64,000 nucleotides of DNA from an uncultured Clostridia bacterium (GTDB lineage Bacteria > Bacillota > Clostridia > Oscillospirales > CAG-272), in the NCBI GenBank assembly GCA_947588825.1, contig CANPZU010000008.1, positions 1,031-65,030 on the forward strand, in the 5' to 3' direction. How positions within the stretch are numbered: the first letter of the stretch is position 1; every line of letters begins with the position of its first letter. This document shows positions 11,453 through 28,574 of this stretch, piece by piece. Below the pieces are notes generated by a model. It saw only the letters and a list, made by a program, of their open reading frames with translations. It was not told the origin of the DNA and did not search any database. The translations under genes were made by a program, and so were the position numbers.

Positions 11453-12595
11453 ATGGCTGTAACAGCGGCAGGAATTATTTTTTCCAATTTGCACGATAAT
11501 AACATACCCGAGCTCACAAGGGTCCGCACGATGGCGTCGGTGCCATTCGGGTGCAGATACCGTTTTATAGACTTTGCTCTGTCCAACATGGTTAACTCGG
11601 GCATAACTAACGTCAACGTTATAACGCACAACAATTATCACTCGCTTATGGACCATGTGGGAAGCGGAAAGGATTGGGACCTTGCCCGAAGAAGCGGTGG
11701 ACTTCGAATACTTCCTCCCTTTATAAGCCCCGCTTCAAAGGATTCCAAGCTCTTTTCCACACGGCTTGAGGCTCTCTGCTCGATAAGCGATCTCATCGAC
11801 AGCATGAAAGAAGAACTGATAGTGATGTCCGATTGCGACAGCATATGCAATATAAATCTTCAGGAGATGATTGCAAAACATGTCGCTTCGGGCGCAGATA
11901 TCACCTTTGCCGTCAAGAAAACGGTTTTGACCGCCGAGAAGGCTCACAGCGAGGCGATAGTCAAATCAGATGAAGAAGGTTATATAACCGAGATAATCGA
12001 TCAACCCGAGGATTTTAAGGGAGAGCAGGACGTCGTTATAAACATCAGCGTTATAAACAAGGACACCCTTTCATCAATAGTACATGAGGCAAGAAGCAAA
12101 AATTATTCCAATATGTACACCGATATAATAAACAAGGTGTCGAGCTCCAAAAAATTCAGAATATACAGGTACGACGGATTTTACGCCGACGTCACATCTA
12201 TGACCGATTACTACGAATGCAATATGAGCATTCTTGAAAAGTGCAACAGAGACGCGCTTTTCGGCATCAAAAGCCGGCCCGTGCTCACAAAGGTTCGAAA
12301 CAGCGCTCCCGCAAAATACATAAACGGCAGTAAGGTTGTTAATTCGATGATAGCGGACGGCTGCGTAATCGAGGGAACGGTTGAAAACTCCATGCTCTTT
12401 CGTGGCGTCATAGTCGGAAAGGGAACGGTGATAAAAAACTGCATTCTTTTCCAGGATGTTCACACGGGCGAAAACGTCTTTTTAAACTGCGTCATTGCCG
12501 ACAAGAACGTCAATATAACCGACAACGTCATGCTGTCAGGGCACAGAACGGTGCCATTTTACATTGAAAAGGGAAAGGTAATAAAAGATCGCTGA
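11453..12595 (+). CDS. glgD: glucose-1-phosphate adenylyltransferase regulatory subunit GlgD
   Basis: GlgC paralogue (ASVPFGCRYRFIDFALSNMVNSGI) lacking the GGxGxRL motif. It starts 5 nt after glgC, as in Firmicutes glgCD pairs. Confidence 0.85.
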   Translation: MAVTAAGIIFSNLHDNNIPELTRVRTMASVPFGCRYRFIDFALSNMVNSGITNVNVITHNNYHSLMDHVGSGKDWDLARRSGGLRILPPFISPASKDSKLFSTRLEALCSISDLIDSMKEELIVMSDCDSICNINLQEMIAKHVASGADITFAVKKTVLTAEKAHSEAIVKSDEEGYITEIIDQPEDFKGEQDVVINISVINKDTLSSIVHEARSKNYSNMYTDIINKVSSSKKFRIYRYDGFYADVTSMTDYYECNMSILEKCNRDALFGIKSRPVLTKVRNSAPAKYINGSKVVNSMIADGCVIEGTVENSMLFRGVIVGKGTVIKNCILFQDVHTGENVFLNCVIADKNVNITDNVMLSGHRTVPFYIEKGKVIKDR

Positions 12596-12666
12596 TTCCA
12601 CGCCTTTTTGCTCATTATGTCTCAGTCGGCTTTGTTTAAAGCGCGCGAATTTGTTCATATTAATGA

Positions 12667-12695
12667 TTGAAACCGATTTAAAATTGTGTTATAAT
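12667..12695 (+). promoter_or_regulatory. sigma-A type promoter upstream of glgA
   Basis: TTGAAA (12667-12672), 17-nt spacer ending in TGt, TATAAT (12690-12695). Confidence 0.6.
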
Positions 12696-12889
12696 GTAAA
12701 TTGTGACACGGCGGCCTTATACAAAAGCCGTTAAACATTTTATGTTACATCAATACAACAAGTTCTCAACCGCTTTTCAAATTAAAAGCTATTCTTTGAC
12801 ATGTTGAATTTGCAATTTGATTATTTGTTTTTCCTTTTGTATTCCGACGGCTTCGGAGCTTATAAAATGATGAAAGGAACGTGCGTAAA

Positions 12890-14317
12890 ATGAAAATACT
12901 GTATGTTGGCGCAGAGGCGCTTCCCTTCGCATCAACGGGAGGACTGGGCGACGTCATGGGTTCGCTTCCCGCGGCTTTGGCAAACTCGAATGAAACGCTT
13001 GATGTTCGTGCGGTAATGCCCCTGTATTCAAAGATTCCGTCAATTTATAGAGACAAAATGACGAAAGTCGACGAATTTACCGTATATTTGAGTTGGAGAC
13101 GTCAGTACTGCGGCGTATGGAAACTGGTTAAGGATAACGTCATATGGTATTTTATCGATAACGAGTACTATTTTAAGAGAGACGGTCTTTACGGTTACTA
13201 TGACGACGGCGAAAGATATGCGTTTTTCTGCATGTCCGTCCTTGAGATGATGTCTCATATCGGCTTTTTCCCCGATGTGCTTCACGCAAATGATTGGCAT
13301 ACGGCACTTACCGTGATATACCTTCGCAGAAAGTACCGTTATGACGCCATCAGGGCCGTTTATACCATTCATAACATCGAATATCAGGGCGTTTACGGTA
13401 AGGAAATACTCGGAGATGTTTTCGGTCTCGGAGACGACGATTTCGGCATCGTTGATTTTAACGGCTGCATCAATCTGACAAAAGGGGCGATTGTTTGCTG
13501 CGACAAGCTGACCACCGTCAGCCAGAAGTACAGCGAGGAAATAAAAACGCCGTACTTTGCACACGGCCTCCACAGCATCATTTCCGATTACGGTTACAAG
13601 ACTTGCGGTATTGTGAACGGAATAGACTATGATTATTACGATCCGAAAAACGACCCGGTTCTTCCGACTCCGGGATATTCCGCATCGTATCGAACCTTTG
13701 CCGGCAAGGCGCAAAACAAAGCCGCGCTGCAAAAGCTGTTCTCTCTCCCCATTGAGCCGGACGTGCCCCTTATTTCAATGATATCAAGGCTTGCTTCTCA
13801 CAAGGGACTTGACATCGTCGAAGGCGCGCTTGAGGAGTTTATTGCCGGCTCTGAGGTCCAGTTTATAGTGCTCGGAACGGGCGAGTACGAATACGAAAAT
13901 TATTTTCGGTATTTGCAGGACAAATATCCTTCTAAGGTCGTTGCCTGCATACAGTTCGACAAGGTGCTTGCAAAGCAGGTATACGCCGGTTCGGACATAT
14001 TTCTCATGCCCTCAAAAAGCGAGCCCTGCGGCCTTTCGCAGATGATTGCCAGCAGGTACGGAGCCGTTCCCGTGGTAAGAGAAACGGGCGGACTTTACGA
14101 CACTATCAAGGCGTATAATCACGAAACCGGTAAGGGCAACGGAGTCACCTTTTTCTCGTATGACCCCGGCGAACTGCTTGTGGCGCTGAGAAGGACGCTT
14201 GAGCTCTACTATGATAAAGCTCAGTGGAAGAAGCTTGTAAGAAACGCCATGAATATGGATTTTACTTGGGGCGCCTCCGCCAAAAAGTATTTCGATCTTT
14301 ACAAAGAGCTGAGCTGA
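12890..14317 (+). CDS. glgA: glycogen synthase (ADP-glucose type, GT5)
   Basis: MKILYVGAEALPFASTGGLGDVMGSLP is the canonical KxGGL-type N-terminus. C-terminal SKSEPCGLSQMIASRYG is also typical. ATG at 12890 with an AAAGGAA RBS is preferred over the GTG at 12881. Confidence 0.93.
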   Translation: MKILYVGAEALPFASTGGLGDVMGSLPAALANSNETLDVRAVMPLYSKIPSIYRDKMTKVDEFTVYLSWRRQYCGVWKLVKDNVIWYFIDNEYYFKRDGLYGYYDDGERYAFFCMSVLEMMSHIGFFPDVLHANDWHTALTVIYLRRKYRYDAIRAVYTIHNIEYQGVYGKEILGDVFGLGDDDFGIVDFNGCINLTKGAIVCCDKLTTVSQKYSEEIKTPYFAHGLHSIISDYGYKTCGIVNGIDYDYYDPKNDPVLPTPGYSASYRTFAGKAQNKAALQKLFSLPIEPDVPLISMISRLASHKGLDIVEGALEEFIAGSEVQFIVLGTGEYEYENYFRYLQDKYPSKVVACIQFDKVLAKQVYAGSDIFLMPSKSEPCGLSQMIASRYGAVPVVRETGGLYDTIKAYNHETGKGNGVTFFSYDPGELLVALRRTLELYYDKAQWKKLVRNAMNMDFTWGASAKKYFDLYKELS

Positions 14318-14655: not shown

Positions 14656-17142
14656 ATGGATAAAAGGACATCAAAATCAAAAAAAGCGACAGTTGAAACA
14701 AAAGAAAAGACAAATAAGAAGGAAAAAGAGCTCAGACTCGGAATTGAAAATAAGCTTTCAAGATACTTTGGCACGACGCCTGAGGAGGCAAACAAGGATC
14801 AGATATACAAATCGGTAGTTCTCTCGGTAAAAGAGATAATGTCTCACAAGCGCACCGAATTCAAGAGGAATGTCAAAGAGCAGGAGGGAAAGAAAGTTTA
14901 TTATCTCTGCATGGAATTCCTGATAGGCAAATCTTTAAAAAACAACCTTATGAATCTCGGCATATGCGACGAGTATACCAAGATACTTAAGGACATGGGT
15001 TATGATATAAACGAGCTATATGAAATGGAGATGAATGCGGGACTCGGCAACGGAGGACTCGGCAGACTCGCGGCCTGCTTTATGGACTCTCTGACGACGC
15101 TGAATTACAGTGCGACCGGCTTTTCCATACTCTATGAATACGGCATTTTTAAACAGAAAATAATTGACGGAGATCAGGTGGAGCTTCCCGACGTGTGGAT
15201 GCCCTCGGGAGAAAGCTGGCTCGTTCCCCGCACCGATAAAACATGCACCGTCAGATTCGGCGGAAGAATACAGGAAAGTTGGAACAACGGCAAGTGTGAT
15301 ATCATTCACACCGACTATACCGAGATACAGGCGGTGCCGTACGACATGCTCATTTCGGGAGCCGACTGTGAGGCGGTAAACTCGCTCAGACTTTGGAAGG
15401 CGGTCAATGTCAATAACAATTTCAATATGGGACTCTTTTCACAGGGCGAATATATAAAGGCCATGGAGAAGAGCAACGAAGCAGAAATCATTTCAAAAGT
15501 GCTGTACCCTTCCGACAATCACGACGAGGGAAAGCTTTTACGCCTTTCACAGCAGTACTTTTTAGTTTGCGCTTCGCTTCAAAGCATAATAGCCGACCAT
15601 CTGCGCAGCTACGGTACTCTTGAAAATTTTGCTGATAAAGTGGCGATTCATATAAACGACACTCATCCGGCTCTTGTCGTGCCCGAGCTTATGAGAATAT
15701 TGATCGATACTTATTCTTATTCGTGGGAGGACGCGTGGGATATAGTCACAAGGACGGTAACTTATACAAATCACACGGTGCTTCCCGAAGCGCTTGAAAC
15801 GTGGAATGAGGATCTGTTCAGATTTAAGCTTCCGAGAATCCATATGATAATTGCCGAGATAAACCGCCGCTTCTGCGCCGATTTGTGGCAGAAATACCCC
15901 GGCGATTGGGACAGGATAAACAACATGTCTTTAATATCTCACAACAGGGTCAAAATGGCCAATCTAAGCATTGTCGGTTCACACACGGTAAACGGGGTTT
16001 CAAAGCTGCACTCCGACATTCTTACAAAGACGATTTTTTCGGATTTTTACAATTATACGCCCGAAAAGTTTACAAATGTGACGAACGGAATAGCTCACCG
16101 CAGGTGGCTGTGCTACAGTAATCCGGGGCTTTGCGCGCTTCTTGACAACACGATAGGTCCGCTTTACCGAAAAGAACCCGAAAGACTCGAGGATTTTAAA
16201 AATTACGCAAACGATAGCGCGGTGCTTGAAAAACTCGGCGAGATAAAGAAGAAGAATAAAGAGACTTTTGCAAAGTACCTTAAAGAAAGGAGCGGCGTAA
16301 TCGTTGACACTTCTTCACTCTTTGACGTACAGGTCAAGAGAATGCACGAGTATAAGAGACAGCTTCTTAACGCTCTTAAGATTATAAGCGTCTATGTCGA
16401 GCTCAAAGAAAATCCGAATAAAGAAATGATCCCGCAGACTTTCATCTTTTCCGCAAAGGCGGCCCCCGGCTACTATATGGCAAAGCAGATAATAAAGCTT
16501 ATCTACTGCATCGGTGCGCAGATTGAAAAGGATCCCGTGATTTCAAAGAAAATGAGAGTTATATTCGTCGAGGATTACAATGTATCGGTGGCGGAGGTTC
16601 TTATTCCGTCGGCCGATGTTTCCGAACAGATTTCTCTTGCCGGTAAGGAAGCAAGCGGAACGGGAAATATGAAGCTGATGATAAACGGCGCGCTGACGCT
16701 TGGTACGCTTGACGGTGCGAATGTCGAAATAGCCGAGGCGGTGGGTCGCGACAACATATATATTTTCGGGCATACGACAAACGAGGTAGAGGACCTGTGG
16801 AAGAGCGGATACCGTGCATTTGACTACTACGGTTCGAGCGAGCTGCTCAGAAAGACGGTTGATCGCCTAAACGAGGGCTTCAACGGGGTGAATTTCTCCG
16901 ACTTTTACAACTACCTCTTGATAGGTCCCGGTATTGCCGACCCTTATATGTGTCTTGCGGACTTTGAGTCCTATCTTGCCGCATACAACAAGCTTCTTTG
17001 CGATTACGGCGACAGTATCAAGTGGAACAGGATGTCTCTTAACAATATCGCCTCTGCCGGAATATTTGCGGCGGACAGAAGTATAAGGGAGTATGCAGAG
17101 AATATATGGCACATTACTCCCATAACCAAAAAGTCAAAATAA
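14656..17142 (+). CDS. glgP: glycogen/maltodextrin phosphorylase (GT35)
   Basis: Has YYLCMEFLIGKSL, GLGNGGLGRLAACF and the PLP-lysine region EQISLAGKEASGTGNMKLMINGALTLGTLDGANVEI. Start at MDKRTSK (14656) with a GGAAGG RBS. Confidence 0.93.
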   Translation: MDKRTSKSKKATVETKEKTNKKEKELRLGIENKLSRYFGTTPEEANKDQIYKSVVLSVKEIMSHKRTEFKRNVKEQEGKKVYYLCMEFLIGKSLKNNLMNLGICDEYTKILKDMGYDINELYEMEMNAGLGNGGLGRLAACFMDSLTTLNYSATGFSILYEYGIFKQKIIDGDQVELPDVWMPSGESWLVPRTDKTCTVRFGGRIQESWNNGKCDIIHTDYTEIQAVPYDMLISGADCEAVNSLRLWKAVNVNNNFNMGLFSQGEYIKAMEKSNEAEIISKVLYPSDNHDEGKLLRLSQQYFLVCASLQSIIADHLRSYGTLENFADKVAIHINDTHPALVVPELMRILIDTYSYSWEDAWDIVTRTVTYTNHTVLPEALETWNEDLFRFKLPRIHMIIAEINRRFCADLWQKYPGDWDRINNMSLISHNRVKMANLSIVGSHTVNGVSKLHSDILTKTIFSDFYNYTPEKFTNVTNGIAHRRWLCYSNPGLCALLDNTIGPLYRKEPERLEDFKNYANDSAVLEKLGEIKKKNKETFAKYLKERSGVIVDTSSLFDVQVKRMHEYKRQLLNALKIISVYVELKENPNKEMIPQTFIFSAKAAPGYYMAKQIIKLIYCIGAQIEKDPVISKKMRVIFVEDYNVSVAEVLIPSADVSEQISLAGKEASGTGNMKLMINGALTLGTLDGANVEIAEAVGRDNIYIFGHTTNEVEDLWKSGYRAFDYYGSSELLRKTVDRLNEGFNGVNFSDFYNYLLIGPGIADPYMCLADFESYLAAYNKLLCDYGDSIKWNRMSLNNIASAGIFAADRSIREYAENIWHITPITKKSK

Positions 17143-19217: not shown

Positions 19218-20123
19218 ATGAAATTAAGATCACTTGCCGCACTCATGCTTGCTTTTGTTCTCTGCTTTTGCCTTGCCGCCTGTAAGGTGGTCGATAATTC
19301 CGACGGTACGTCAAATAATTCTTCCAGCAACCAAGGAAACACGGACATGGACGGCCCTGCTGCAAAGGGCGAGGTGAAATACAAATTTCTAAAGGTCGGC
19401 AAATCCCCTTGTACAATAATACGCACTCAAAACAGCACCGTAATTATCGACGCCGCCTCGGAAGATCAGGGCGGGGATATCGTGACATATCTTAATGAAA
19501 AGGCTGTAACAACTGTCGACTATCTTATAGTCACCAACTTTTCAAAAACTTGTATCGGCGGAGTTCCGACTCTTCTTCAAGCCGCCGGGATTACGGTAAA
19601 AAACATTTATGAGCCTTCCTATGCCAAGGACAGCAGCGCTTATACGTCGTATAAGAATGCTTTGGCTGCCGTAGGCATCACTCCAATCAAAATAGCGGGA
19701 GACACAAGTATCACGGTCGACGATTTGCAAATCAAGTTTTTGCCTCCGCTGAAGGATTATTCGTCCGCGCTCGACGAAAATGACGAGGGCAATTCCGTGG
19801 CACTTTCAATTTCACACGGAAACGCGAGATTTCTTTATACAAGCCGCGTCGCCGGGGACAGAGTCACAGAACTCATCTCGCAGATAGGCGACACCAAGTA
19901 CGATTTCATCACGGTTCCCAACTACGGAAGATACGATGCCAAATACGAAACGCTCTTTAACGCGATCTCGGCCAAGAACGCGGTCATATTCGCCTCAGCC
20001 AAAAATCCCCCCGAAACAAGCATGATACAACTGCTTGACAACGCGAATATAAAATACTATGTCACGCGCGACGGCGGAGTTGAGGCAAGCTCCGACGGAA
20101 CGGCATTTACAATAAAACAGTAA
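19218..20123 (+). CDS. lipoprotein with ComEC-type MBL fold but without the metal-binding motifs
   Basis: Lipobox MKLRSLAALMLAFVLCFCLAAC at the internal ATG at 19218 (GGGAGA RBS). Block order matches MBL lipoproteins, but DYLIVTNFSKTCIGG replaces the THxHxDHxGG block and VPNYGRYD replaces the GHHGS block. Confidence 0.6.
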   Translation: MKLRSLAALMLAFVLCFCLAACKVVDNSDGTSNNSSSNQGNTDMDGPAAKGEVKYKFLKVGKSPCTIIRTQNSTVIIDAASEDQGGDIVTYLNEKAVTTVDYLIVTNFSKTCIGGVPTLLQAAGITVKNIYEPSYAKDSSAYTSYKNALAAVGITPIKIAGDTSITVDDLQIKFLPPLKDYSSALDENDEGNSVALSISHGNARFLYTSRVAGDRVTELISQIGDTKYDFITVPNYGRYDAKYETLFNAISAKNAVIFASAKNPPETSMIQLLDNANIKYYVTRDGGVEASSDGTAFTIKQ

Positions 20124-20866
20124 TTGATTTTTTGCAGTACAGAAAAACAACAAGACGGTAAAAATAAAACAAAGCTCACTCGAGAAAGGGTGGGCTTTGC
20201 TCTTTTGGGGCAGTTGAAAGGATTATAAGGGCATAACAAGCAAATCAAAAGCGCCGCGCAAGCCGTCCCAAAGCTCTTGAATTTGCATGTGTGCGATTTT
20301 GGCGCGTTTGTTAAATATGTTTGCGCCATTTTTTTAGGTCGTGCAGGCTGAATAAAAAAGATGCCGCGAGAGGGCGGTGTCCAATAAAACAATTTCAGAT
20401 TGTTTTCGGAGTGCGGCATGATTTCGGTCATGCCGCAGTTCCGTTTTATGAGATCGTTCAAAAGCGAGGCCGGGAGTATCGCTATGTAGTTGTAGCTGAT
20501 GTCCACATCCTGAACCCGATGCCCGCCGGACTTGTCCGGCGCATGAACATAGACCGCTTTGACCAGATTGTTCAGGATCGCAGGCGTCAGCTCCGTCAGA
20601 TAGAGATACTTCTTCACCGTGCGGATGAAACGGTCTACATTGTCCGCCTGATCCTCCTGCTCGCAAATCTCCTTGGTCAGGACAGCGATCCTTTCTCGCA
20701 GCTCCGTTTGCTCCTTTTCGTAGTCGTCGGAAAGCATCTGAAACCTTGCCTCGCTCAGCCGTCCTGCTACCATATCCTCATATATTCGCTTGAAAAGCCT
20801 GTCAAGCTCGGCAATACAACGGACATCTCTTCGCCCTTTTTGGGGTATGCCGTCGAAAATATCCCT
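20057..20866 (-). pseudogene. C-terminal remnant of a large serine recombinase (DUF4368-like tail); catalytic N-terminus absent
   Basis: The frame is open from the TAG at 20869-20867. AELDRLFKRIYEDMVAGRLSEARFQMLSDDYEKEQTELRERIAVLTKEI...VDRFIRTVKKY...LTPAILNNLVKAVYVHAPDKSGGHRVQDVDISYNYIAIL matches the C-terminal coiled-coil tail of Tn/ICE serine recombinases. There is no resolvase domain upstream. Below about 20440 the ORF carries no recognisable similarity and overlaps the convergent lipoprotein gene. Confidence 0.6.
20170..20207 (+). terminator. intrinsic terminator
   Basis: CAAAGCTCAC / GTGGGCTTTG 10-bp stem (one G-U pair) followed by CTCTTTT. Confidence 0.65.
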
Positions 20867-21004
20867 CTATTAGACAACGGACATTTTTTCGCCAAAATGC
20901 ACCCTCTGAATTGTAAAATTTCTGTGAATAGCAAAGTCCCTTTCACTTTACAACGGACAATTATTCAACAGGTGAGGGGGTGCCGGGAAAGAATATTTTG
21001 AGAA

Positions 21005-21143
21005 CAGCGGCATCCGCTACTTTAAAAAACTGAGGATGCCGCTGCTGTGTGAATACGGTTTTAGGAAGAACAGCAAGCAAATCCGCTGTCCGTACACAGC
21101 GGAAAAATGACCATCCTCCACGCCGCAGAGAACGGTCATTTTT
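21005..21143. other. cluster of three stem-loops (11 bp, 7 bp, about 10 bp stems)
   Basis: CAGCGGCATCC/GGATGCCGCTG (21005-21044). CCGCTGT/ACAGCGG (21083-21102). AAAAATGACC.../...GGTCATTTTT (21103-21143), which ends in a T-run. Confidence 0.6.
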
Positions 21144-21189
21144 ATTCGTGGGATAGTCCCACACCCTTATAGAAATCCGTCAAGGTCTC

Positions 21190-21218
21190 TTGATTTCATT
21201 CGTGTTTTCGAGTATAAT
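21190..21218 (+). promoter_or_regulatory. sigma-A type promoter of the HTH/R-M operon
   Basis: TTGATT (21190-21195), 17-nt spacer, TATAAT (21213-21218). Confidence 0.65.
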
Positions 21219-21255
21219 ATGCTTGTTGAATTATAGGGAAAAGGGGCGATGGAAG

Positions 21256-21450
21256 ATGAAATATCTGTCTGTCCGGCAGACATCGGAACGCTGGGGCATC
21301 TCCACCCGGCGCATACAGATTCTTTGCTGTGAGGGGCGCATTCCCGGAGCGGTACGGATAGGCTATACGTGGGCTATCCCTGACGACGAGCCGAAGCCAA
21401 GGGACGCAAGAATTAAGAGTGGGAAATATATTAAAAGTAAGAGTGATTAA
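21256..21450 (+). CDS. small helix-turn-helix DNA-binding protein (MerR/excisionase-like HTH)
   Basis: MKYLSVRQTSERWGISTRRIQILCCEGRIPGAVRIGYTWAIPDDEPKPRD is a typical stand-alone HTH of gut Firmicutes mobile elements. The ATG at 21256 has a purine-rich RBS. The upstream track extension looks non-coding. Confidence 0.7.
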   Translation: MKYLSVRQTSERWGISTRRIQILCCEGRIPGAVRIGYTWAIPDDEPKPRDARIKSGKYIKSKSD

Positions 21451-21467
21451 AGAAAGGAACTAATTGA

Positions 21468-22295
21468 ATGCCAAAGAAGAAAACTTGGATGGTTATACTG
21501 CTTATAGTTGTTGTGGCCGTTTTAACTATCGGGGTTCCTTTTGCCATAAATGAGGCCTACAAAGTTGACAAGGGATATGTAACCATGTGGGGCGCCGAAG
21601 ATGTACTAAGTTATTATGGCGCAATTCTTGGGGCAACTGCAACTGTTGCTGCCCTTGCCTTTACTATATGGTTTACCAAGAGACAAATCCAGCGGGACGC
21701 TTATTTGAAAAATGAGACTGATAAATGGAGACAGGTTGAATCCACCATTGGAAGCATCTTAAACGAAATAAATCCGATAATCATGTTGAAACGAGGTATG
21801 GATACTGAATTTATGGATCCCGGCTATGCCATGAACCAGTTTTCAAAATACAGCATGGATTGTCGGCTTACAACCGATCAGTTAATGACGCGTGTTAATA
21901 CTTTTGATTTTAAAATGATTTCCGAATTAGTTAAGCGGATACAAGAAGTTGCAGACAAGCTCTTTCAACTTAGTCAAAAGGAAATAGATCAACATAACAA
22001 GCGGCTGCAATTACAACAAAGAGAGAATGCGCGGAAATTGCTTGCAATAGAGCAGCAATATCCCGGCTCACTCCCCGCCTCTGAAATTGCGAGGCATCAG
22101 GAAACAATAAAGATGACAGATGGTATTTGTTTAGAAGAAATAACCGATTCTATAAACGAAATCAACAAAGAATTCTGGAACATATATGATACGGAGTTCA
22201 GGCCGCTATTGCAACTTAAAGGGACGACTTTTGAATCTATCTATATGCAAATTCAGGCAAATGCAGATGCTATATTGTCGTTTTGGAGGAAATAA
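21468..22295 (+). CDS. unknown protein: two N-terminal TM helices plus about 190-aa helical/coiled-coil cytoplasmic domain
   Basis: Hydrophobic segments WMVILLIVVVAVLTIGVPFAI and YYGAILGATATVAALAFTIWF. The rest is charged and helical (KRLQLQQRENARKLLAIEQQ). AAAGGAA RBS. AT-rich. The stop lies 2 nt before the mod start. Confidence 0.7.
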   Translation: MPKKKTWMVILLIVVVAVLTIGVPFAINEAYKVDKGYVTMWGAEDVLSYYGAILGATATVAALAFTIWFTKRQIQRDAYLKNETDKWRQVESTIGSILNEINPIIMLKRGMDTEFMDPGYAMNQFSKYSMDCRLTTDQLMTRVNTFDFKMISELVKRIQEVADKLFQLSQKEIDQHNKRLQLQQRENARKLLAIEQQYPGSLPASEIARHQETIKMTDGICLEEITDSINEINKEFWNIYDTEFRPLLQLKGTTFESIYMQIQANADAILSFWRK

Positions 22296-22297
22296 CT

Positions 22298-23890
22298 ATG
22301 CCCACCCTTGAATGGATCGGAAAAGATAAAGTGATCAATCACCACCAAGAGGTGCCCTATCGGGTGCTGGAGCGGCGGTACAGCTTTGATGCGAACGGGC
22401 AGCATGATGCCGACAACGGCAGCGAGAACATGATCATCCGGGGCGACAATCTGGAAGCGCTGAAGGCGCTGCTGCCCCGGTACGAGGGACGGGTCAAGTG
22501 CATCTACATAGATCCGCCGTACAACACGGGAAACGAAGGCTGGGTCTACAACGACAACGTGAACGACCCGAAGATCAAAAAGTGGCTCGGCGAAGTTGTC
22601 GGCAAAGAGGGCGAGGACTTGACCCGCCACGACAAGTGGCTGTGCATGATGTACCCACGGCTCAAGCTGCTGCAAAAACTGTTGGCGGACGATGGGGCTA
22701 TATTCATTAGTATTGATAATTCCGAACTATTTGAATTAAAATTGATATGTGACGAGGTGTTCGGTGCAAGAAACTATGTTGATACAATATCATGGTTTAA
22801 GAAAGCCTCGCCGTCAAATGATGCCCAGTTTTTTAGTAATGATATTGAATACATAATTGTGTATGCAAAACAGAAAGATGTTTGGCATCCATCTCGACTG
22901 ACATTATCGGAGAAGCAATTAAAATATTATCAAAACCCCGATAATGATCCCCGCGGACCTTGGAACTCTGCAACGTATACTTGCAACAAATCTAAGGACG
23001 AACGACCAAATTTATATTATCCAATAGTTAACCCTCATACTGGGACAGAAGTATTTCCGAAAATCACCGCAGTTTGGAAATATTCAAGGGAACAGACAGA
23101 GAGGTTTCAAAAAGATAATCGGATTTTTTGGGGAGTAGATGGAACAGCAAAATTCCCCCGCTTCAAAAAGTATTTGTCAGAACATGAGGGTGTTGTCAAT
23201 CGCACATTATGGCATTATGATGATGTAAATCATACTCAGGGGGCTTCCAATGAATTAAAACTTATTGGAATTAATGGATTTGCGACGCCGAAACCCACAA
23301 AATTAATTGAACGCATTATAAAAATTGCGGCTTCATCCGATTCTATTGTACTCGACTCCTTCGCCGGTTCCGGCACCACCGCCCATGCCGTTCTTAACAT
23401 GAACAAGGCCGACGGCGGCAACCGTAAGTTTATTCTCGTCGAGATGATGGACTACGCCGATTCCATCACCGCCGAGAGGGTTAAGCGCGTCATTCAGGGC
23501 TACGGAGAGGGCAAAAACGCCGTTGAGGGTACAGGGGGCGATTTCAGCTTTTACGACCTCGGCGAGCCGCTTTTGATCGGAGAAAACCTCAACGAAGCCG
23601 TGGGGACGGAGAAAATACGGGAGTATGTGTGGTTCATGGAGACAAAGTCTCCCTACGCTCCTGCCGAATGCGATAACCCCTATTGCCTCGGACGCCATAA
23701 CGACACCAGCTACTATTTCTACTACGAGCCGGAACGGATCACCGTTCTTGACTATGCGTTCCTCTCCGGCGTCACGGAGAGATCCGGCGGAACCGTTATC
23801 TACGCCGACCGCTGCGCCCTCGGCGAGGACAAGCTCGCGCAGATGGGGATCGTGTTCAAAAAGATACCCCGCGACATCAGCAGACTGTAA
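22298..23890 (+). CDS. mod: Type III restriction-modification methyltransferase (Mod, beta-class N6A/N4C MTase)
   Basis: Motif IV IYIDPPYNTGNEGW precedes motif I VLDSFAGSGTTAHAV, which is the beta-class order. HDKWLCMMYPRLKLL is present. A central variable region lies between the motifs. GGAGG RBS before the ATG at 22298. Confidence 0.9.
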   Translation: MPTLEWIGKDKVINHHQEVPYRVLERRYSFDANGQHDADNGSENMIIRGDNLEALKALLPRYEGRVKCIYIDPPYNTGNEGWVYNDNVNDPKIKKWLGEVVGKEGEDLTRHDKWLCMMYPRLKLLQKLLADDGAIFISIDNSELFELKLICDEVFGARNYVDTISWFKKASPSNDAQFFSNDIEYIIVYAKQKDVWHPSRLTLSEKQLKYYQNPDNDPRGPWNSATYTCNKSKDERPNLYYPIVNPHTGTEVFPKITAVWKYSREQTERFQKDNRIFWGVDGTAKFPRFKKYLSEHEGVVNRTLWHYDDVNHTQGASNELKLIGINGFATPKPTKLIERIIKIAASSDSIVLDSFAGSGTTAHAVLNMNKADGGNRKFILVEMMDYADSITAERVKRVIQGYGEGKNAVEGTGGDFSFYDLGEPLLIGENLNEAVGTEKIREYVWFMETKSPYAPAECDNPYCLGRHNDTSYYFYYEPERITVLDYAFLSGVTERSGGTVIYADRCALGEDKLAQMGIVFKKIPRDISRL

Positions 23891-23905
23891 AGGAGGCGGC
23901 GCATC

Positions 23906-26518
23906 ATGGAAATGAAAACCTATCAGAAAAAAGTGATTGCCGACCTCGTCCGCTATCTGGAACTGCTGAACGAGGTGCGTGACAGCGGCGTTGCGTTCTA
24001 CCACTTCTGGCATGAAAAGAGCGCACCATCTCTCGGCATCTATCAGGACATCCTGCCGGGTGTGCCGAATCTGTGCTTCAAAGTTCCCACGGGCGGCGGA
24101 AAGACGTTCATCGCCTGCAATTCCGTGCGTCCGATTTTCGACGCGCTGCCCGTCACAAAGACGAAAGCCGTCGTGTGGCTGGTGCCGTCCGATGCGATCC
24201 TCACGCAGACCGTTAAGGCACTGAAAGACGTCCGCCACCCGTACCGGCAGAAGATCGACGTGGATTTCGGCGGGCGTGTTGAGGTCTATACGAAAGAGGA
24301 ACTTCTGAACGGGCAGAATTTCAATCCCACCGCCGTCACTGAGCAACTTTCGATTATGGTGCTGTCTTACGACTCGTTCCGTGGGCGCGGCAAAGAGGGA
24401 CTGAAAGCCTATCAGGAGAACAGCAATCTCGCTAACTTTGCGAAGGTGCTGGGAAAGCCGGAAAATCCCATTGAGAAAGCGGACGAGTCCGCGCTGTTTC
24501 AGATCATCAATCAGTTGTCGCCCCTCGTGATAGTGGACGAGAGCCACCACGCACGGTCTGAGTTGAGTATCGAGATGCTGGCGAATTTCAATCCCTGCTT
24601 TGTGCTGGATTTGACTGCCACGCCGAAAAAAGAAAGCAATATTATCTCTTATGTGGACGCTGTGCAGCTCAAGAACGAGAACATGGTGAAGCTGCCTGTT
24701 ATCGTCTATAACCGGGACAGTCAGACGGAGGTTCTGACCGACGCCATCGACCTGCGGAACAAGTTAGAGGAAATCGCCGTCGCAGAACAGAAAAAGACAG
24801 GACGGTACATCCGCCCCATTGCATTGTTTCAGGCTCAGCCAAAGGGCAAAGAGGATGCGACGACATTTGAAAAACTCCGTGAAAAGCTGGTTGACGCCGG
24901 AATCCCTGCGGAGCAGATCGCTATCCGCACCGCCGATGTGAACGAACTGAAAAATATTGATTTGATGTCGCCAAACTGTCAGGTGCGGTACATCATCACC
25001 GTCAATGCCCTCAAAGAGGGCTGGGACTGCCCGTTTGCCTACATATTGGCGTCCCTTGCCAACAAGACGAGCCAAGTGGACGTGGAGCAGATTCTGGGAC
25101 GTATCCTCCGGCTGCCGCACACTGTTCAGCACAGCCAGACAGCGTTGAACATGTCCTATGTACTGACATCCTCCAATGATTTTGACGAGACGGTTCGCCG
25201 CATAATCCGTGGGCTCAACAGCGCCGGATTCAGCGATAAGGACTACCGTCTGTCCGCGCCGGTCGCCCCGAAGCCGGTCGTTTCCCACGAGCCGGAGCAG
25301 CTTGAACCACAACGGATGGAAACGCCTGATGAGGATAATTTCGACGGCGTAGACGGCGAGGCGATCGGGAAAGAGCTGGAGCGGCGCCGTGCGCAGAGCG
25401 ATACCGCCGAAGCGCCTCAAAAGGCGACGGATATGTTGAAAGACGCGGTAAAAGCGGGGCAGGACTACGACAAAGCGCGTAATGGTGCGGAGAATGATCC
25501 CTACACAAATGTCCTCCCGTGGGAGGTGCGTGAAAAGGTGACGACTTTCTATGTCCATCCGCAGTTCCGAAAAGACGTGGAGAACCTGATAATTCCGCAA
25601 TTTTTCCAAGTGGTGCCGGAGTCTCTTTTTACGGAAGGAACGCTGGAGCTATTGGAAAAGGAACAGCTTGCGGAGGGCTTTACGCTGAAGGGCAAGGCAT
25701 ACGATATTGACTTCGTTTCTGCGGACGATGAGATCGCCAAGGTCGATGTCCGGCAAAGCGAAGGCGGTTTGCCAAAGGTGTTCAAGATGTCCAGCGCCGA
25801 CCAGCGGTACTTCAAGGAGTATTTCAACAGCCTGCCGCCGGAAAGCCGTGTGCGTCAGTGCAAGGATATGATGTTCTCTCAGCTCAACAAAATGAACACG
25901 GTGGACGCCGCCGAGTTGAGGGCCTATATTGATCTGATTTTTGGATCGATGGACAAGGCTCAGCTTGCCGCCATGGAGAAAGCGCCGCTCGGCTATGCCG
26001 CAAAGATCAAGGCAAAGATTGAATCACTGCTGACAGAACATTACAAGGAAACCTTTGCCCGCTGGCTGGAGACGGAACGCATCGTCTGCCGTCCGTCGTA
26101 CCGTCTGCCCGTGTGCATCCATCCGATGGACAATACGGACATGATCGGCAGGTCGCTCTATCAGGCAGAAGAAGATATGAATCAGCTTGAGCAGGACTTG
26201 GTGATGGAGCTGACCGCCCTGCCCAACGTCCGTTGGTGGCATCGGAACATTGCGAAGCACGGCTTCTGTATAAACGGCTTTATCAATCACTACCCGGACA
26301 TTATGCTGATGACAAACAGCGGGAAGGTCATTTTTGTCGAGACAAAAGGCGAGCATCTGAAAAACGATGACAGCCGCGATAAAATCGCCCTTGGTCAGGC
26401 ATGGCGCAATGCGGCGGGCAGTCAGTTCAGGTATTACATGGTGTTCGCCGACGATGTTGAGCCTCTGCCGGGAGCGGTGGGGATGAAGCAGTTTGCGGAG
26501 ATCGTGAAAGAACTGTAA
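23906..26518 (+). CDS. res: Type III restriction enzyme Res subunit (SF2 helicase plus C-terminal PD-(D/E)xK-like nuclease)
   Basis: Walker A FKVPTGGGKTFIA. DEAH-type box LVIVDESHHA. Helicase C region ITVNALKEGWDCPFAYIL...QILGRILR. C-terminal VIFVETKGEHL. AAGGAGG RBS. Confidence 0.9.
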   Translation: MEMKTYQKKVIADLVRYLELLNEVRDSGVAFYHFWHEKSAPSLGIYQDILPGVPNLCFKVPTGGGKTFIACNSVRPIFDALPVTKTKAVVWLVPSDAILTQTVKALKDVRHPYRQKIDVDFGGRVEVYTKEELLNGQNFNPTAVTEQLSIMVLSYDSFRGRGKEGLKAYQENSNLANFAKVLGKPENPIEKADESALFQIINQLSPLVIVDESHHARSELSIEMLANFNPCFVLDLTATPKKESNIISYVDAVQLKNENMVKLPVIVYNRDSQTEVLTDAIDLRNKLEEIAVAEQKKTGRYIRPIALFQAQPKGKEDATTFEKLREKLVDAGIPAEQIAIRTADVNELKNIDLMSPNCQVRYIITVNALKEGWDCPFAYILASLANKTSQVDVEQILGRILRLPHTVQHSQTALNMSYVLTSSNDFDETVRRIIRGLNSAGFSDKDYRLSAPVAPKPVVSHEPEQLEPQRMETPDEDNFDGVDGEAIGKELERRRAQSDTAEAPQKATDMLKDAVKAGQDYDKARNGAENDPYTNVLPWEVREKVTTFYVHPQFRKDVENLIIPQFFQVVPESLFTEGTLELLEKEQLAEGFTLKGKAYDIDFVSADDEIAKVDVRQSEGGLPKVFKMSSADQRYFKEYFNSLPPESRVRQCKDMMFSQLNKMNTVDAAELRAYIDLIFGSMDKAQLAAMEKAPLGYAAKIKAKIESLLTEHYKETFARWLETERIVCRPSYRLPVCIHPMDNTDMIGRSLYQAEEDMNQLEQDLVMELTALPNVRWWHRNIAKHGFCINGFINHYPDIMLMTNSGKVIFVETKGEHLKNDDSRDKIALGQAWRNAAGSQFRYYMVFADDVEPLPGAVGMKQFAEIVKEL

Positions 26519-26542
26519 AACGCGAATATAGGAGGGGTTAAA

Positions 26543-27007
26543 TTGAAACAGTTTTTATATCTTGATACAGATATCGTTAATTCCATAATTGCGCAAGAAG
26601 AAAAAGGACTTGTTCAAGATTTTTCAAAAGACGATCAAAAAAATAAGACAAAAAGTACACATATTGAAGTTGGAGGGGAAGGTTTCGGTAAAGCGGAAGG
26701 TTCTCTCTTCAAACTGGCTAAGGCCGAGGCAAACCTCACTTTGTCGGTAGGCATAGAAAAAGATTATTCATCTGGCACGACAACACATGAAATTATCTCA
26801 AAAGTCCTACATGACGCAGCATTTGATGTAGCATACGAGTACATTCGCTCATGTAATTTTAAGTTGGGAAAAAGCAACTCAGATGACTATGGAGATTATG
26901 TAGAAATAAAGCGCGTATTTGACTTTGTGGATTTTGCTTATCTTGAGAATTTGTTTTCAAAAGGCGGATTGATAGAATATCAAAAAGTTATCGCGGGAAG
27001 AAATTGA
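26543..27007 (+). CDS. unknown protein (probable 5' half of a gene split by a frameshift)
   Basis: TTG start 5-6 nt after a strong AGGAGGGG RBS. MKQFLYLDTDIVNSIIAQEEKGLVQDF... AT-rich. The stop at 27005-27007 comes just after an A5 run (26982-26986). Confidence 0.6.
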   Translation: MKQFLYLDTDIVNSIIAQEEKGLVQDFSKDDQKNKTKSTHIEVGGEGFGKAEGSLFKLAKAEANLTLSVGIEKDYSSGTTTHEIISKVLHDAAFDVAYEYIRSCNFKLGKSNSDDYGDYVEIKRVFDFVDFAYLENLFSKGGLIEYQKVIAGRN

Positions 27008-27035
27008 GATAAGACTTGGTCAGGCAACGGAAAAA

Positions 27036-27443
27036 ATGAACCGCGATCAGTTACGTAACTCAGAAAAGCAGATTAAAGCAGAAATGAAAAAAATTGTTGA
27101 AACAAGCGACAAACAATATGACGATGTTCATGATATTATTGCTGCGTTTCGACAATTAGTGCCGTATACACGTATGCTAATTTCTCATGATGGGTATCTC
27201 ATTCCTTTGGATGATAAATATTTTAGAGTAAATCCAGAAAGTCTTGGTTTTAGATATGGTGGAGAAATAACGTGTGTTGGAATGATAACAAATATAATCG
27301 GTGCAGACACAAATCCAAACGATCCTAAAAATATATTTGCAACTTTACAGTTTACTGTGAATGAAGCCCTAAGAAAAATCTTGCCAACGGCAGAAGAAAA
27401 TCTGTGTGTTATTCATCCTATTGCTGTATTTTACGGGGATTAA
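27036..27443 (+). CDS. unknown protein (probable 3' half of the same split gene)
   Basis: No convincing SD before the ATG at 27036. Its frame is already open from 26976, overlapping the end of the previous ORF in the +1 frame. Confidence 0.5.
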   Translation: MNRDQLRNSEKQIKAEMKKIVETSDKQYDDVHDIIAAFRQLVPYTRMLISHDGYLIPLDDKYFRVNPESLGFRYGGEITCVGMITNIIGADTNPNDPKNIFATLQFTVNEALRKILPTAEENLCVIHPIAVFYGD

Positions 27444-27460
27444 ATCTTCAGAGAAAAACA

Positions 27461-27495
27461 GCCATACTCAGTCAATAAACCGAGTGTGGCCGTTT
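27461..27495 (+). terminator. intrinsic terminator closing the R-M operon
   Basis: GCCATACTC / GAGTGTGGC stem (27461-27490, one G-U pair) followed by CGTTTTATTT. Confidence 0.7.
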
Positions 27496-27656
27496 TATTT
27501 GTTGCACCCCTGTTTGGCAGCTGCTCTTTGTTAGTATAGTTTTGATACTGCTTTATTGAAAGCTGCCTCGGGGCGGCAATCTTTATAATTTTTTAAGATA
27601 ATTTTTGAAGAGGAAAAAAGCAAAGAATATTTTTTAGTGTACGGCAGAGAGTAAAA

Positions 27657-28442
27657 TCACTCTTGGAGGTCTTTTGAATTATCATCGTTTCCCGAAGAGT
27701 CCTTAATAGAAGGTTGTGCATTCTCTTGGGATGGAACTTCTTCCCCGGCGTCGTCAAGAAGGCTGAGAAGAAAGTCGTTGTCCGAAAAGGAGAGAGTGTT
27801 GTATATATTTTTCTCCGCGTAGCCCTTGCAGATTTTATGCCGGCGCATAATGGCGTCGATTATATTCTTTTGAGTTCTTCCGTTCATTATTGGAGCGCTG
27901 CAGAGATTTTGGCAGAAGGGAATGAGCATGTCGCCAGTCATAACATTGTCAGAATAAAGCTCGTCATAGCTTGCATGATCGTCGGAGAGCAGGACTATGT
28001 TGTATATGTTTTGCGAAGGTATGCCCGCCTTCATAAGTATATCGTCGATCTCGGCGGTATAGCGCTTTCCGATCTTTGCGAAGTTTGGGATTTCTTCGGT
28101 GACGCCGTTGTTTGTGACTGTCCAGCTTTCCTCGGGCAAGGTGACGAAAAACCCCTTTTTATCGACTACCGTGATAACGACGACGCCGCCCTTAAGAACT
28201 GCCACAACATCGGCTTTGGGAGGAATATTGTTATCTCCGGCCTTTAGAAGGTATACGCTTCGAAGGACCGCTTTTTTATAGTAAAGCTTCATCAGCGAGT
28301 AAGCGAACCGATAATCGCGCGCGCTGTCTGCGTAAATTGCAAAAAGGCGGGAAAGCTTTCGTATGGCAAAAAACATATATGTAACGGTTGCCGCGGCGAT
28401 GAGCGCGCAGCAAATCAAAAACACTACAGTGGCCGTTTGCAT
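27657..28442 (-). CDS. membrane-anchored NERD-like (nuclease-related domain) protein
   Basis: N-terminal TM helix TATVVFLICCALIAAATVTYMFFAI. ADVVAVLKGGVVVITVVDKKGFF...W...NFAKIGKRYTAEIDDIL follows the NERD pattern (D-x-V...G-V-x-V-I-E/D-x-K). ATG at 28442 with a GAAAGGA RBS is preferred over 28460. Confidence 0.5.
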   Translation of the reverse strand: MQTATVVFLICCALIAAATVTYMFFAIRKLSRLFAIYADSARDYRFAYSLMKLYYKKAVLRSVYLLKAGDNNIPPKADVVAVLKGGVVVITVVDKKGFFVTLPEESWTVTNNGVTEEIPNFAKIGKRYTAEIDDILMKAGIPSQNIYNIVLLSDDHASYDELYSDNVMTGDMLIPFCQNLCSAPIMNGRTQKNIIDAIMRRHKICKGYAEKNIYNTLSFSDNDFLLSLLDDAGEEVPSQENAQPSIKDSSGNDDNSKDLQE

Positions 28443-28574
28443 GAATAAACATCCTTTCAAAACGCGTCATATTTGCCAAGCGGCAGACACACCCGCGTTT
28501 ATTATATTATAAAATAAATTTTCGATTTTGTCAATCGGTTTGTAAATAATGCGACAAAATGTGTGTAAATGTGA

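Follow-up and report, generated by a model that had tools for sequence, protein, structure and literature searches.

We analysed a gene cassette at positions 21190–27495 of a 64,000-nucleotide (nt) stretch of contig CANPZU010000008.1, from an uncultured Clostridia bacterium (Oscillospirales, CAG-272); the whole stretch is called the window below. The centre of the cassette is a Type III restriction–modification (R-M) pair, mod and res. Upstream of the pair lie a small helix-turn-helix (HTH) gene and a gene for a 275-amino-acid (aa) protein with two transmembrane (TM) helices, TM275, and downstream of it lies a DUF6414 gene that is broken by a frameshift. We favour, with moderate confidence, the interpretation that this is an ordinary Type III R-M core with modular defence-associated add-ons and not one obligate six-gene system. 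It would then be a small defence cassette beside the stump of a serine-recombinase element. Going by family membership, Mod would methylate one strand of an asymmetric site, and Mod and Res together would cut unmodified invading DNA in an ATP-dependent manner. Cleavage by Type III systems requires a pair of unmethylated sites in inverse orientation. TM275 upstream and DUF6414 downstream would be add-ons read from the conserved promoter of the core. They are most likely autonomous second-layer modules rather than subunits of the enzyme, because each family travels with several R-M types and TM275 outlasts the loss of mod and res.

A preliminary description of this DNA had proposed that the additional products are defence-linked cargo arranged around Mod and Res. 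Homologues of the accessory genes do co-occur with R-M and defence genes. A Type III mod gene was found downstream of TM275 in 48 of the 74 metagenomic loci (from a sample of 80) that have at least 120 nt of downstream sequence, and five of seven DUF6414 lineages adjoin R-M genes. In addition, the arrangement recurs in a distant lineage (L021–25; loci compared with the window carry L numbers) in the order Fic, TM275, Mod, AAA_21/DUF4435, Res, DUF6414, with protein identities to the window of 39% for TM275, 63% for Mod, 48% for Res and 69% for DUF6414. The cargo proposal is upheld by the linkage of both families to R-M and by this recurring order.

The same description had offered as another possibility a single multi-gene system that had recruited Mod and Res. 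This was not borne out. TM275 occurs beside other systems or alone, the HTH gene is not a conserved partner, and the DUF6414 gene is dead here and ends operons of other R-M types as well. Of the metagenomic loci with TM275, mod and res in a row, nine extend for 800 nt or more beyond res, and none of the nine has a DUF6414 gene there. Identities to the window are also uncoupled between proteins of one locus: Res is 76% and TM275 36% identical in L073, and the corresponding values in L079 are 85% and 37%. In L112 (1387–2060) the N-terminus of TM275 (aa 4–135) is fused directly to a DUF6414 protein that is 85% identical to that of the window, and in L110 and L111 (6001–6460) it is joined (aa 1–147) to an AAA_21/DUF4435 gene. 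We regard these loci as deletion derivatives. The absence of DUF6414 from the nine loci, the uncoupled TM275 and Res identities and the deletion derivatives together point to shuffling of modules rather than to one co-evolving machine.

Layout of the operon and its Type III core

A sigma-70-type promoter-like site, TTGATT-N17-TATAAT, was located by motif scan at 21190–21218 on the + strand (10/12 matches). The two hexamers recur unchanged in L001, a diverged version of the cassette from a Lachnospiraceae metagenome-assembled genome with ~84% nucleotide identity here. Promoter-like sites were modestly enriched in the region, the promoter scan returning 17 as compared with 10.2 ± 3.1 expected. 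The site is followed, all on the + strand, by a row of six open reading frames (ORFs), of which the HTH ORF (21256–21450, 64 aa) is the first. After it come TM275 (21468–22295, 275 aa), mod (22298–23890, 530 aa), res (23906–26518, 870 aa), ORF5 (26543–27007, 154 aa) and ORF6 (27036–27443, 135 aa), with gaps between successive ORFs of 17, 2, 15, 24 and 28 nt. The promoter, the tight packing on one strand and the gaps had all been described before, and every coordinate was reproduced. The six-ORF operon is really five genes, ORF5 and ORF6 being parts of one. A recognisable Shine–Dalgarno (SD) sequence precedes every gene of the operon except HTH.

An intrinsic terminator closes the operon at 27461–27495 (+ strand; hairpin and T-run, −21.3 kcal/mol, z = −5.14). 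The terminator scan itself overlooked it; it is also kept in L030. On the + strand the scan gave no terminator-like site from the promoter up to 27461, in agreement with the earlier view that the terminator at 27461–27495 is the first convincing one. Just 5' of the promoter, an inverted repeat at 21103–21150 forms a hairpin with arms of 16 nt, bordered by an A-run and a T-run, and looks like a bidirectional terminator or an insulator. The sequence flanking this hairpin is partly kept in L001. An Rfam search gave no leader RNA and a tRNA search no tRNA at an integration site, and flanking repeats were not detected in repeat searches either.

The mod gene encodes a beta-class N6/N4 DNA methyltransferase (MTase). 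It matches PADLOC MTase_III (PDLC03644) over its full length (residues 1–529, E 1.6e-214) and Pfam N6_N4_Mtase (E 8e-42). Its DPPY motif, at residue 72, precedes the target-recognition domain (TRD) and its FAGSG motif, at residue 355, follows it, which is the beta-class order. The TRD was delimited by composition and by comparison with L001 as a central AT-rich part of mod (~22718–23350, + strand). Window and L001 DNA are 84–88% identical on both mod flanks and show no similarity across ~22742–23351. The alignment thus indicates a TRD swap between the two, a common difference among alleles of Type III mod. The res gene lies directly 3' of mod, across the 15-nt gap, and encodes an SF2 helicase/ATPase with a C-terminal PD-(D/E)xK nuclease (PADLOC REase_III, E 2.3e-81; Pfam ResIII, E 1.8e-17). 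Its motifs are GGGKT at residue 63, DESH at 211, TAT at 237, QILGRILR at 395 and D798...E812-T-K814, and it matches the EcoP15I Res structure 4zcf_C weakly (E 7e-4). Judged by sequence, mod and res form an intact Type III R-M pair, and the core looks functional, because the catalytic motifs are intact and both proteins match Type III models. Tandem Repeats Finder, applied to 20000–28000, detected no simple-sequence repeat for phase variation in or upstream of mod; it returned only two short two-copy repeats, at 22247–22266 and 27585–27611, both outside mod.

The first 70–140 codons of mod (window 22298–22717) showed 83–94% protein identity in loci whose TM275 is only ~37% identical. The loci with this conserved mod 5' end are L049, L086, L120–122 and L017–19, several of which retain only a 5' stump of mod 3' of TM275. 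This conserved stretch has the look of a junction at which cassettes are exchanged by recombination.

Base composition differs strongly along the operon. The GC content is 0.40 in TM275, 0.35–0.36 in the two halves of DUF6414 and 0.54 in res; within mod it is 0.55 in the N-terminal part, 0.37 in the TRD and 0.57 in the C-terminal part, and the value for the whole window is 0.467. This confirms, part by part, the contrast drawn earlier between AT-rich accessory ORFs and a GC-rich mod core and res. The conclusion that had been attached to it, assembly of the operon from parts of different origin, is not supported as a recent event in this genome. The same per-gene contrast, with TM275 and DUF6414 low and mod and res high, holds in every locus checked (L005, L006, L021, L026). 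The GC mosaic is therefore a property of the gene families and gives no evidence for recent assembly here; recent assembly was rejected as its cause.

The TM275 family

Hydropathy and an AlphaFold2 (AF2) model describe TM275 as a 2-TM hairpin followed by a cytoplasmic all-helical domain. The two hydrophobic helices lie at ~residues 5–30 and ~49–70 (hydropathy peaks at ~5–30 and ~51–70); KKK precedes the first helix, and KRQIQRD comes after the second. On the positive-inside rule these flanking charges predict an N-in/C-in topology, with a short outer loop and a cytoplasmic domain of ~195 aa. The outer loop is conserved (GY.T.WGA.DVLSYYG). The AF2 model is all-helical, with a mean predicted local distance difference test (pLDDT) score of 84.5 and values >90 over most of the cytoplasmic part. 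Searches of Pfam, NCBIfam, PADLOC and PHROG gave no family match for the window protein, and no fold match was obtained, so that the earlier statement that the 275-aa protein belongs to no named family stands. Neither an ABC-ATPase nor an anticodon-nuclease domain was found in it (Pfam, NCBIfam, PADLOC), the AF2 model being an all-helical bundle. Scattered sub-threshold matches to DUF2254 (4 of 24 aligned members) and GajB (2 of 24) were rejected as family assignments. Searches of PDB by sequence and by profile returned nothing below E 0.05 for the TM275 and DUF6414 families, and database records give members of either no name beyond 'hypothetical protein'.

The family comprises 1060 representative clusters (defined at 50% identity) at E ≤ 1e-3, and 141 at E ≤ 1e-30. 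Its alignment has 24 invariant columns, which are densest around the TM hairpin and loop. Distant homologues (L009–L011) share only residues ~3–77 with the window protein and their C-terminal parts differ; the N-terminal module is therefore separable and forms the conserved core. TM275 probably acts at the membrane, as an exclusion module or one of abortive-infection type, in which the 2-TM/loop part would be the working part and the variable cytoplasmic domain a sensor or adaptor.

In the 48 metagenomic loci with Type III mod downstream, the distance from TM275 to mod was mostly ~5–20 nt and in some ~230–530 nt, and res was also seen in 20. Many of the other 26 loci adjoin serine recombinases or insertion sequence (IS) elements, with the TM275 ORF still intact. 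In GTDB loci L001, L005, L006 and L010, TM275 is directly 5' of Type III mod. The six Type III loci that were read directly have TM275–mod gaps of 0–2 nt or overlaps, and the GGAGG of mod falls inside the stop region or last codons of TM275 in the window and in L001, L005, L006, L021 and L010. TM275 and mod are probably translationally coupled, because the mod SD sequence sits within the last codons of TM275.

The gene orders link the family strongly to Type III mod and also place it with other defence systems. TM275 lies 5' of a HSDR_N_2-N6_Mtase gene and an S subunit gene in L007, 3' of BREX BrxL in L002/L003, 3' of a T5orf172-ResIII helicase gene in L004 and 3' of a D12 MTase gene in L009. 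It adjoins GmrSD in L010, precedes a C5-MTase/MutH-like/Vsr cluster by ~0.7 kilobases in L037, and is 5' of IceA and a C5 MTase gene on an integrative element in L039. In L041 it shares an operon with HSDR_N_2-N6_Mtase, S subunit and nSTAND NTPase genes. In L017–19, where TM275 is 80% identical to that of the window, all that remains of mod is a stretch of 27 codons from its 5' end, beyond which the genes are unrelated. The TM275 ORF is intact in L017–19, L055, L063 and L081, where mod is a 27-aa stump or absent.

These neighbourhoods bear directly on a rival reading, in which TM275 is a dedicated third component of a Type III clade. It would act as a membrane tether at the site of DNA entry, in the control of establishment or of Res activity, or as a PrrC-style guard that is held inactive by Mod and Res and released when a phage inhibits restriction. 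The presence of Type III mod directly or closely downstream in 48 of the 74 loci agrees with such a role, as do the tight gaps and overlaps with the mod SD sequence embedded in the TM275 stop region, and the TM275–mod linkage persists from 80% down to ~30% TM275 identity. There is also a precedent in PrrC with EcoprrI, an accessory gene within an R-M locus whose product senses inhibition of the restriction enzyme (PMC12707154). However, TM275 is found with unrelated R-M types, BREX and GmrSD, it remains intact after loss of mod and res, and its divergence is uncoupled from that of Res in L073 and L079, as expected of shuffling and not of co-evolution. We consider a dedicated role rather unlikely and retain the reading of an R-M core with separable add-ons.

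Other genes were observed around TM275 in some of these loci. Among sister Type III cassettes with further variable add-ons, L005 carries a RhuM gene upstream (8837–9841) and FRG and 'Beta protein' genes downstream (15261–17032). L006 carries an AAA_14/DUF4143 ATPase gene upstream (8544–9923) and an AAA_21/DUF4435 gene between mod and res (12589–14211). In L017 (1–3364), and also in L018, an 847-aa protein that is cut by the contig end is encoded 5' of TM275 and matches Pfam RdRP (E 1.9e-11), a family of eukaryote-type RNA-dependent RNA polymerases. An unannotated 275-aa protein is encoded 3' of it, and SLFN_AlbA_2/HATPase_c_4, KptA/Tpt1 and ADP-ribosylglycohydrolase genes are present on the same island. 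This may be an uncharacterised defence island.

The DUF6414 gene and its relatives

The preliminary description had left ORF5 and ORF6 as a downstream pair without a named family. Both match Pfam DUF6414, ORF5 covering positions 1–129 of the profile and ORF6 positions 149–283 in frames that differ by +1, and they make up one broken gene with a DolA-type domain (26543–27443, + strand). The suggestion in that description that the pair could be repaired to a single protein of ~298 aa proved right, as the repaired translation covers positions 1–283 of the 283 in the profile (E 4.9e-26). The closest relative, P0043, is intact (300 aa, 93% aa identity). It is encoded on L030, which has ~95% nucleotide identity to the window and shares the layout of res, a 24-nt gap, DUF6414 and terminator. 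Alignment with L030 placed a 2-bp deletion at 26975–26981 (+ strand), where GAATATATC has become GAATATC, the window having lost one AT unit from TATAT. This excluded a slip or phase variation at an A5 homopolymer, which had been considered as the origin of the frameshift.

The same frameshift was present in L012, an independent contig from another sample whose sequence shows no difference from that of the window between 21278 and ~30650. The lesion is therefore real in the lineage, and assembly error was rejected as its source. We conclude from these alignments that ORF5 and ORF6 represent one DUF6414 pseudogene in the window lineage. The DUF6414 codons of the window and L030 differ by 17 synonymous and 20 non-synonymous changes, too few to judge relaxed selection. 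There are 681 DUF6414 homologues, and those listed are mostly intact (299–309 aa) and highly conserved.

The neighbours of DUF6414 elsewhere were varied. It is 3' of Type III res in L020–25, a locus present in hundreds of samples, and shares 4 nt with the end of a gene for an MmeI-type IIG enzyme on a small integrative element in L026–29. In L031 it follows a HSDR_N_2-N6_Mtase gene and a 399-aa ORF. The operon in L035 reads HTH_17, Fic, D12 MTase, HNH_2, a 360-aa ORF, DUF6414 and an unannotated 687-aa ORF. DUF6414 is directly 3' of RloA/RloB in L124 and 3' of an AAA_14/DUF4143 ATPase gene in L033. It is the 3'-terminal gene in L020–25, L030, L026–29, L031 and L124; L035 has one further ORF. 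With the window/L030 lineage counted as one of its own, the five lineages that adjoin R-M cover four R-M types, and the sixth, with RloA/RloB, is of defence type. On these gene orders, the subfamily repeatedly ends R-M operons of four types. The protein would act like the DolA component of Dodola. Dodola consists of a DUF6414 protein and a ClpB-like ATPase, and it protects Bacillus subtilis from phage SPP1 (PMC11514479).

Several points weigh against an ordinary core with autonomous add-ons. Co-transcription of the operon is something that we infer from its sequence. The 65% adjacency of TM275 to Type III mod and the coupling through an SD sequence in its stop region fit a dedicated partner of an R-M clade as well. 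No functional or structural homology yields a mechanism for TM275. The matches that Foldseek gave in PDB and BFVD were all to generic helical bundles or BAR-like folds (E ≥ 0.03, TM-score ≤ 0.31), and were rejected as uninformative. TM275 relatives were absent from PLSDB plasmids, INPHARED phages and IMG/VR, unlike typical superinfection-exclusion proteins. For DUF6414, the PADLOC DolA model gave no match to the repaired window protein and matched 8 of 29 relatives, weakly and in the N-terminal part only (best E 4.4e-5); by these profile comparisons the window-type proteins are a subfamily distinct from DolA. No DolB/ClpB-like gene lies beside DUF6414 in the operon or in the seven context types examined, and an AF2 model of DUF6414 from 29 homologues was unusable (mean pLDDT 49.7). 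Among the comparisons that the preliminary description had suggested for the accessory proteins, PADLOC placed neither of the two, Foldseek did not place TM275, and homology to DUF6414 was established through Pfam.

A stronger claim can be framed around both families, namely that Type III restriction in gut Clostridia has a three-component version, coupled to the membrane and not recognised before, in which TM275 is an obligate partner of Mod and Res. Restriction would then take place at the membrane site of DNA entry, or a membrane-damaging effector would respond to inhibition of Mod and Res, with DUF6414 as an R-M back-up module that dispenses with the Dodola ATPase. We consider this unlikely.

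The HTH gene, the flanks and known systems

The first gene of the operon (21256–21450, + strand) encodes a 64-aa HTH protein of MerR/excisionase-like type (HTH_17). It matches Pfam HTH_17 at E 3.3e-4 and 21.3 bits, under the 27-bit cutoff, and its PHROG matches include an HTH DNA-binding protein (5.2e-6) and an excisionase (1.6e-4). Pfam gave no HTH_3 match for it, and C-boxes were not identified. The gene is 5' of TM275 only in the close relatives L001 and L017–19; this distribution marks it as a lineage-specific partner that is not conserved with the cassette. It may be a lineage-specific regulator or an excisionase relic.

A different role would be that of a controller resembling C proteins, which would set the timing of mod and res expression, with TM275 as an unrelated passenger. 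Such a role is suggested by the position of a small HTH gene at the head of the operon, 37 nt past the −10 element, by a short TATAAT...ATTATA inverted repeat that was seen by eye to overlap the −10 element, and by the operon in L035, which likewise opens with an HTH_17 gene before R-M. The protein is nevertheless of the HTH_17/MerR-excisionase class and not of the XRE class of known C proteins, its Pfam score is below the cutoff and its best PHROG matches include an excisionase. The HTH gene is also missing 5' of TM275-mod in nearly all other loci, and the cassette therefore does not need it. We regard a controller function as doubtful.

All four of the ENA metagenome contigs with 100% identity to the operon (L012–L015) begin at exactly 21278, and L016, a Logan contig, begins at 21312. 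Assembly graphs evidently break inside the HTH 5' end, because L012–L015 share this start. This suggests that, upstream of the HTH 5' end, the sequence occurs in repeats or differs between co-occurring strains.

To the left of the cassette, an ORF at 20057–20773 on the − strand is the remnant of a serine recombinase, truncated at its 5' end and retaining the DUF4368 region only (Pfam DUF4368, E 3.5e-22, ORF residues 36–97); DUF4368 is the C-terminal domain of large serine recombinases. No ORF with a resolvase or recombinase domain is present between 20773 and 21180, and DNA similarity to L001 starts at ~20987. The cassette thus abuts a decayed mobile element on this side. Three direct copies of a 20-nt ACAACGGACATCTCTTCGCC-like motif, spaced 58 and 76 nt, were observed at 20816–20969, in DNA that separates the recombinase stump from the cassette and is either non-coding or decayed.

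In another rival reading the accessory genes are generic cargo or maintenance functions of integrative mobile elements, such as entry exclusion or addiction, with no role in defence and with R-M neighbours acquired by riding on the same element. Many of the contexts are indeed on or beside integrases, relaxases, serine recombinases or IS elements (L021, L026, L031, L035, L039, L049, L081), and the window has its recombinase stump. The adjacency goes beyond a shared element, however, in that the genes are neighbours in one operon, and the immediate neighbours are overwhelmingly R-M, BREX, GmrSD, RloAB and AAA-ATPase genes of defence type. Moreover, a protein of the DUF6414 family belongs to an experimentally validated defence system. 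A non-defence origin is very unlikely in our view, and defence-associated add-ons to an R-M core remain the preferred reading.

Two further features of the window lie outside the cassette. A convergent ORF of 267 aa (27657–28460, − strand) has an N-terminal TM helix and no Pfam family; in NCBIfam it gave only a weak sub-threshold match to BasA (E 0.022). Its stretch ADVVAVLKGGVVVITVVDKKG resembles by eye a NERD-type nuclease-related motif, as a candidate only. Near the right end of the window, at 62384–63502, there are four tandem copies of a ~273-nt unit with 63–80% identity to the reference copy, which probably encode a repeat-domain protein.

R-M operons with embedded second-layer genes are already known (PrrC, Rlo genes). 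TM275 and the DUF6414 subfamily are unnamed or uncharacterised, and the models of current defence finders include neither. In gut metagenomes TM275 is abundant, and its linkage to Type III mod is much more frequent than chance would give. If either family proved to have a phage or plasmid phenotype, this would add new defence genes and would provide a tractable case for membrane-based back-up or regulation of restriction.

The core shares with classical Type III R-M systems (EcoP15I/EcoP1I) the order of mod before res, a beta-class Mod with DPPY ... TRD ... FxGxG, a Res with SF2 helicase motifs and a C-terminal PD-ExK, and a central TRD that is swapped between conserved flanks. It differs from them in having extra co-oriented genes at both ends and a Res that is only remotely related to that of EcoP15I. 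A leading small HTH gene is shared with C-protein-controlled R-M systems, although the window HTH is of the HTH_17 (MerR/Xis) and not the XRE class and is not conserved with the cassette.

A partial likeness to Dodola lies in a window gene that is full length for Pfam DUF6414 once repaired and in relatives that weakly match the N-terminal part of the DolA model. In contrast to Dodola, the window gene is frameshifted, has no ClpB-like partner and no match to the DolA model, and belongs to a subfamily attached to R-M operons. As with PrrC/EcoprrI and RloC, a non-R-M gene lies in or against an R-M operon, and it would be co-expressed with it and act as a second layer that backs restriction (PMC12707154). 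TM275 differs from PrrC and RloC in being a membrane protein without an ATPase or anticodon-nuclease domain, and the partner of PrrC is a Type Ic system, whereas that of TM275 is Type III, another R-M type or no R-M at all. The window cassette lacks the AAA_21 and DUF4435/RloB genes of RloA/RloB, and TM275 and DUF6414 belong to other families. It resembles RloA/RloB in the insertion of modular defence-type genes into R-M operons, and its sister cassettes in L006 and L020–25 carry AAA_21-DUF4435 between mod and res.

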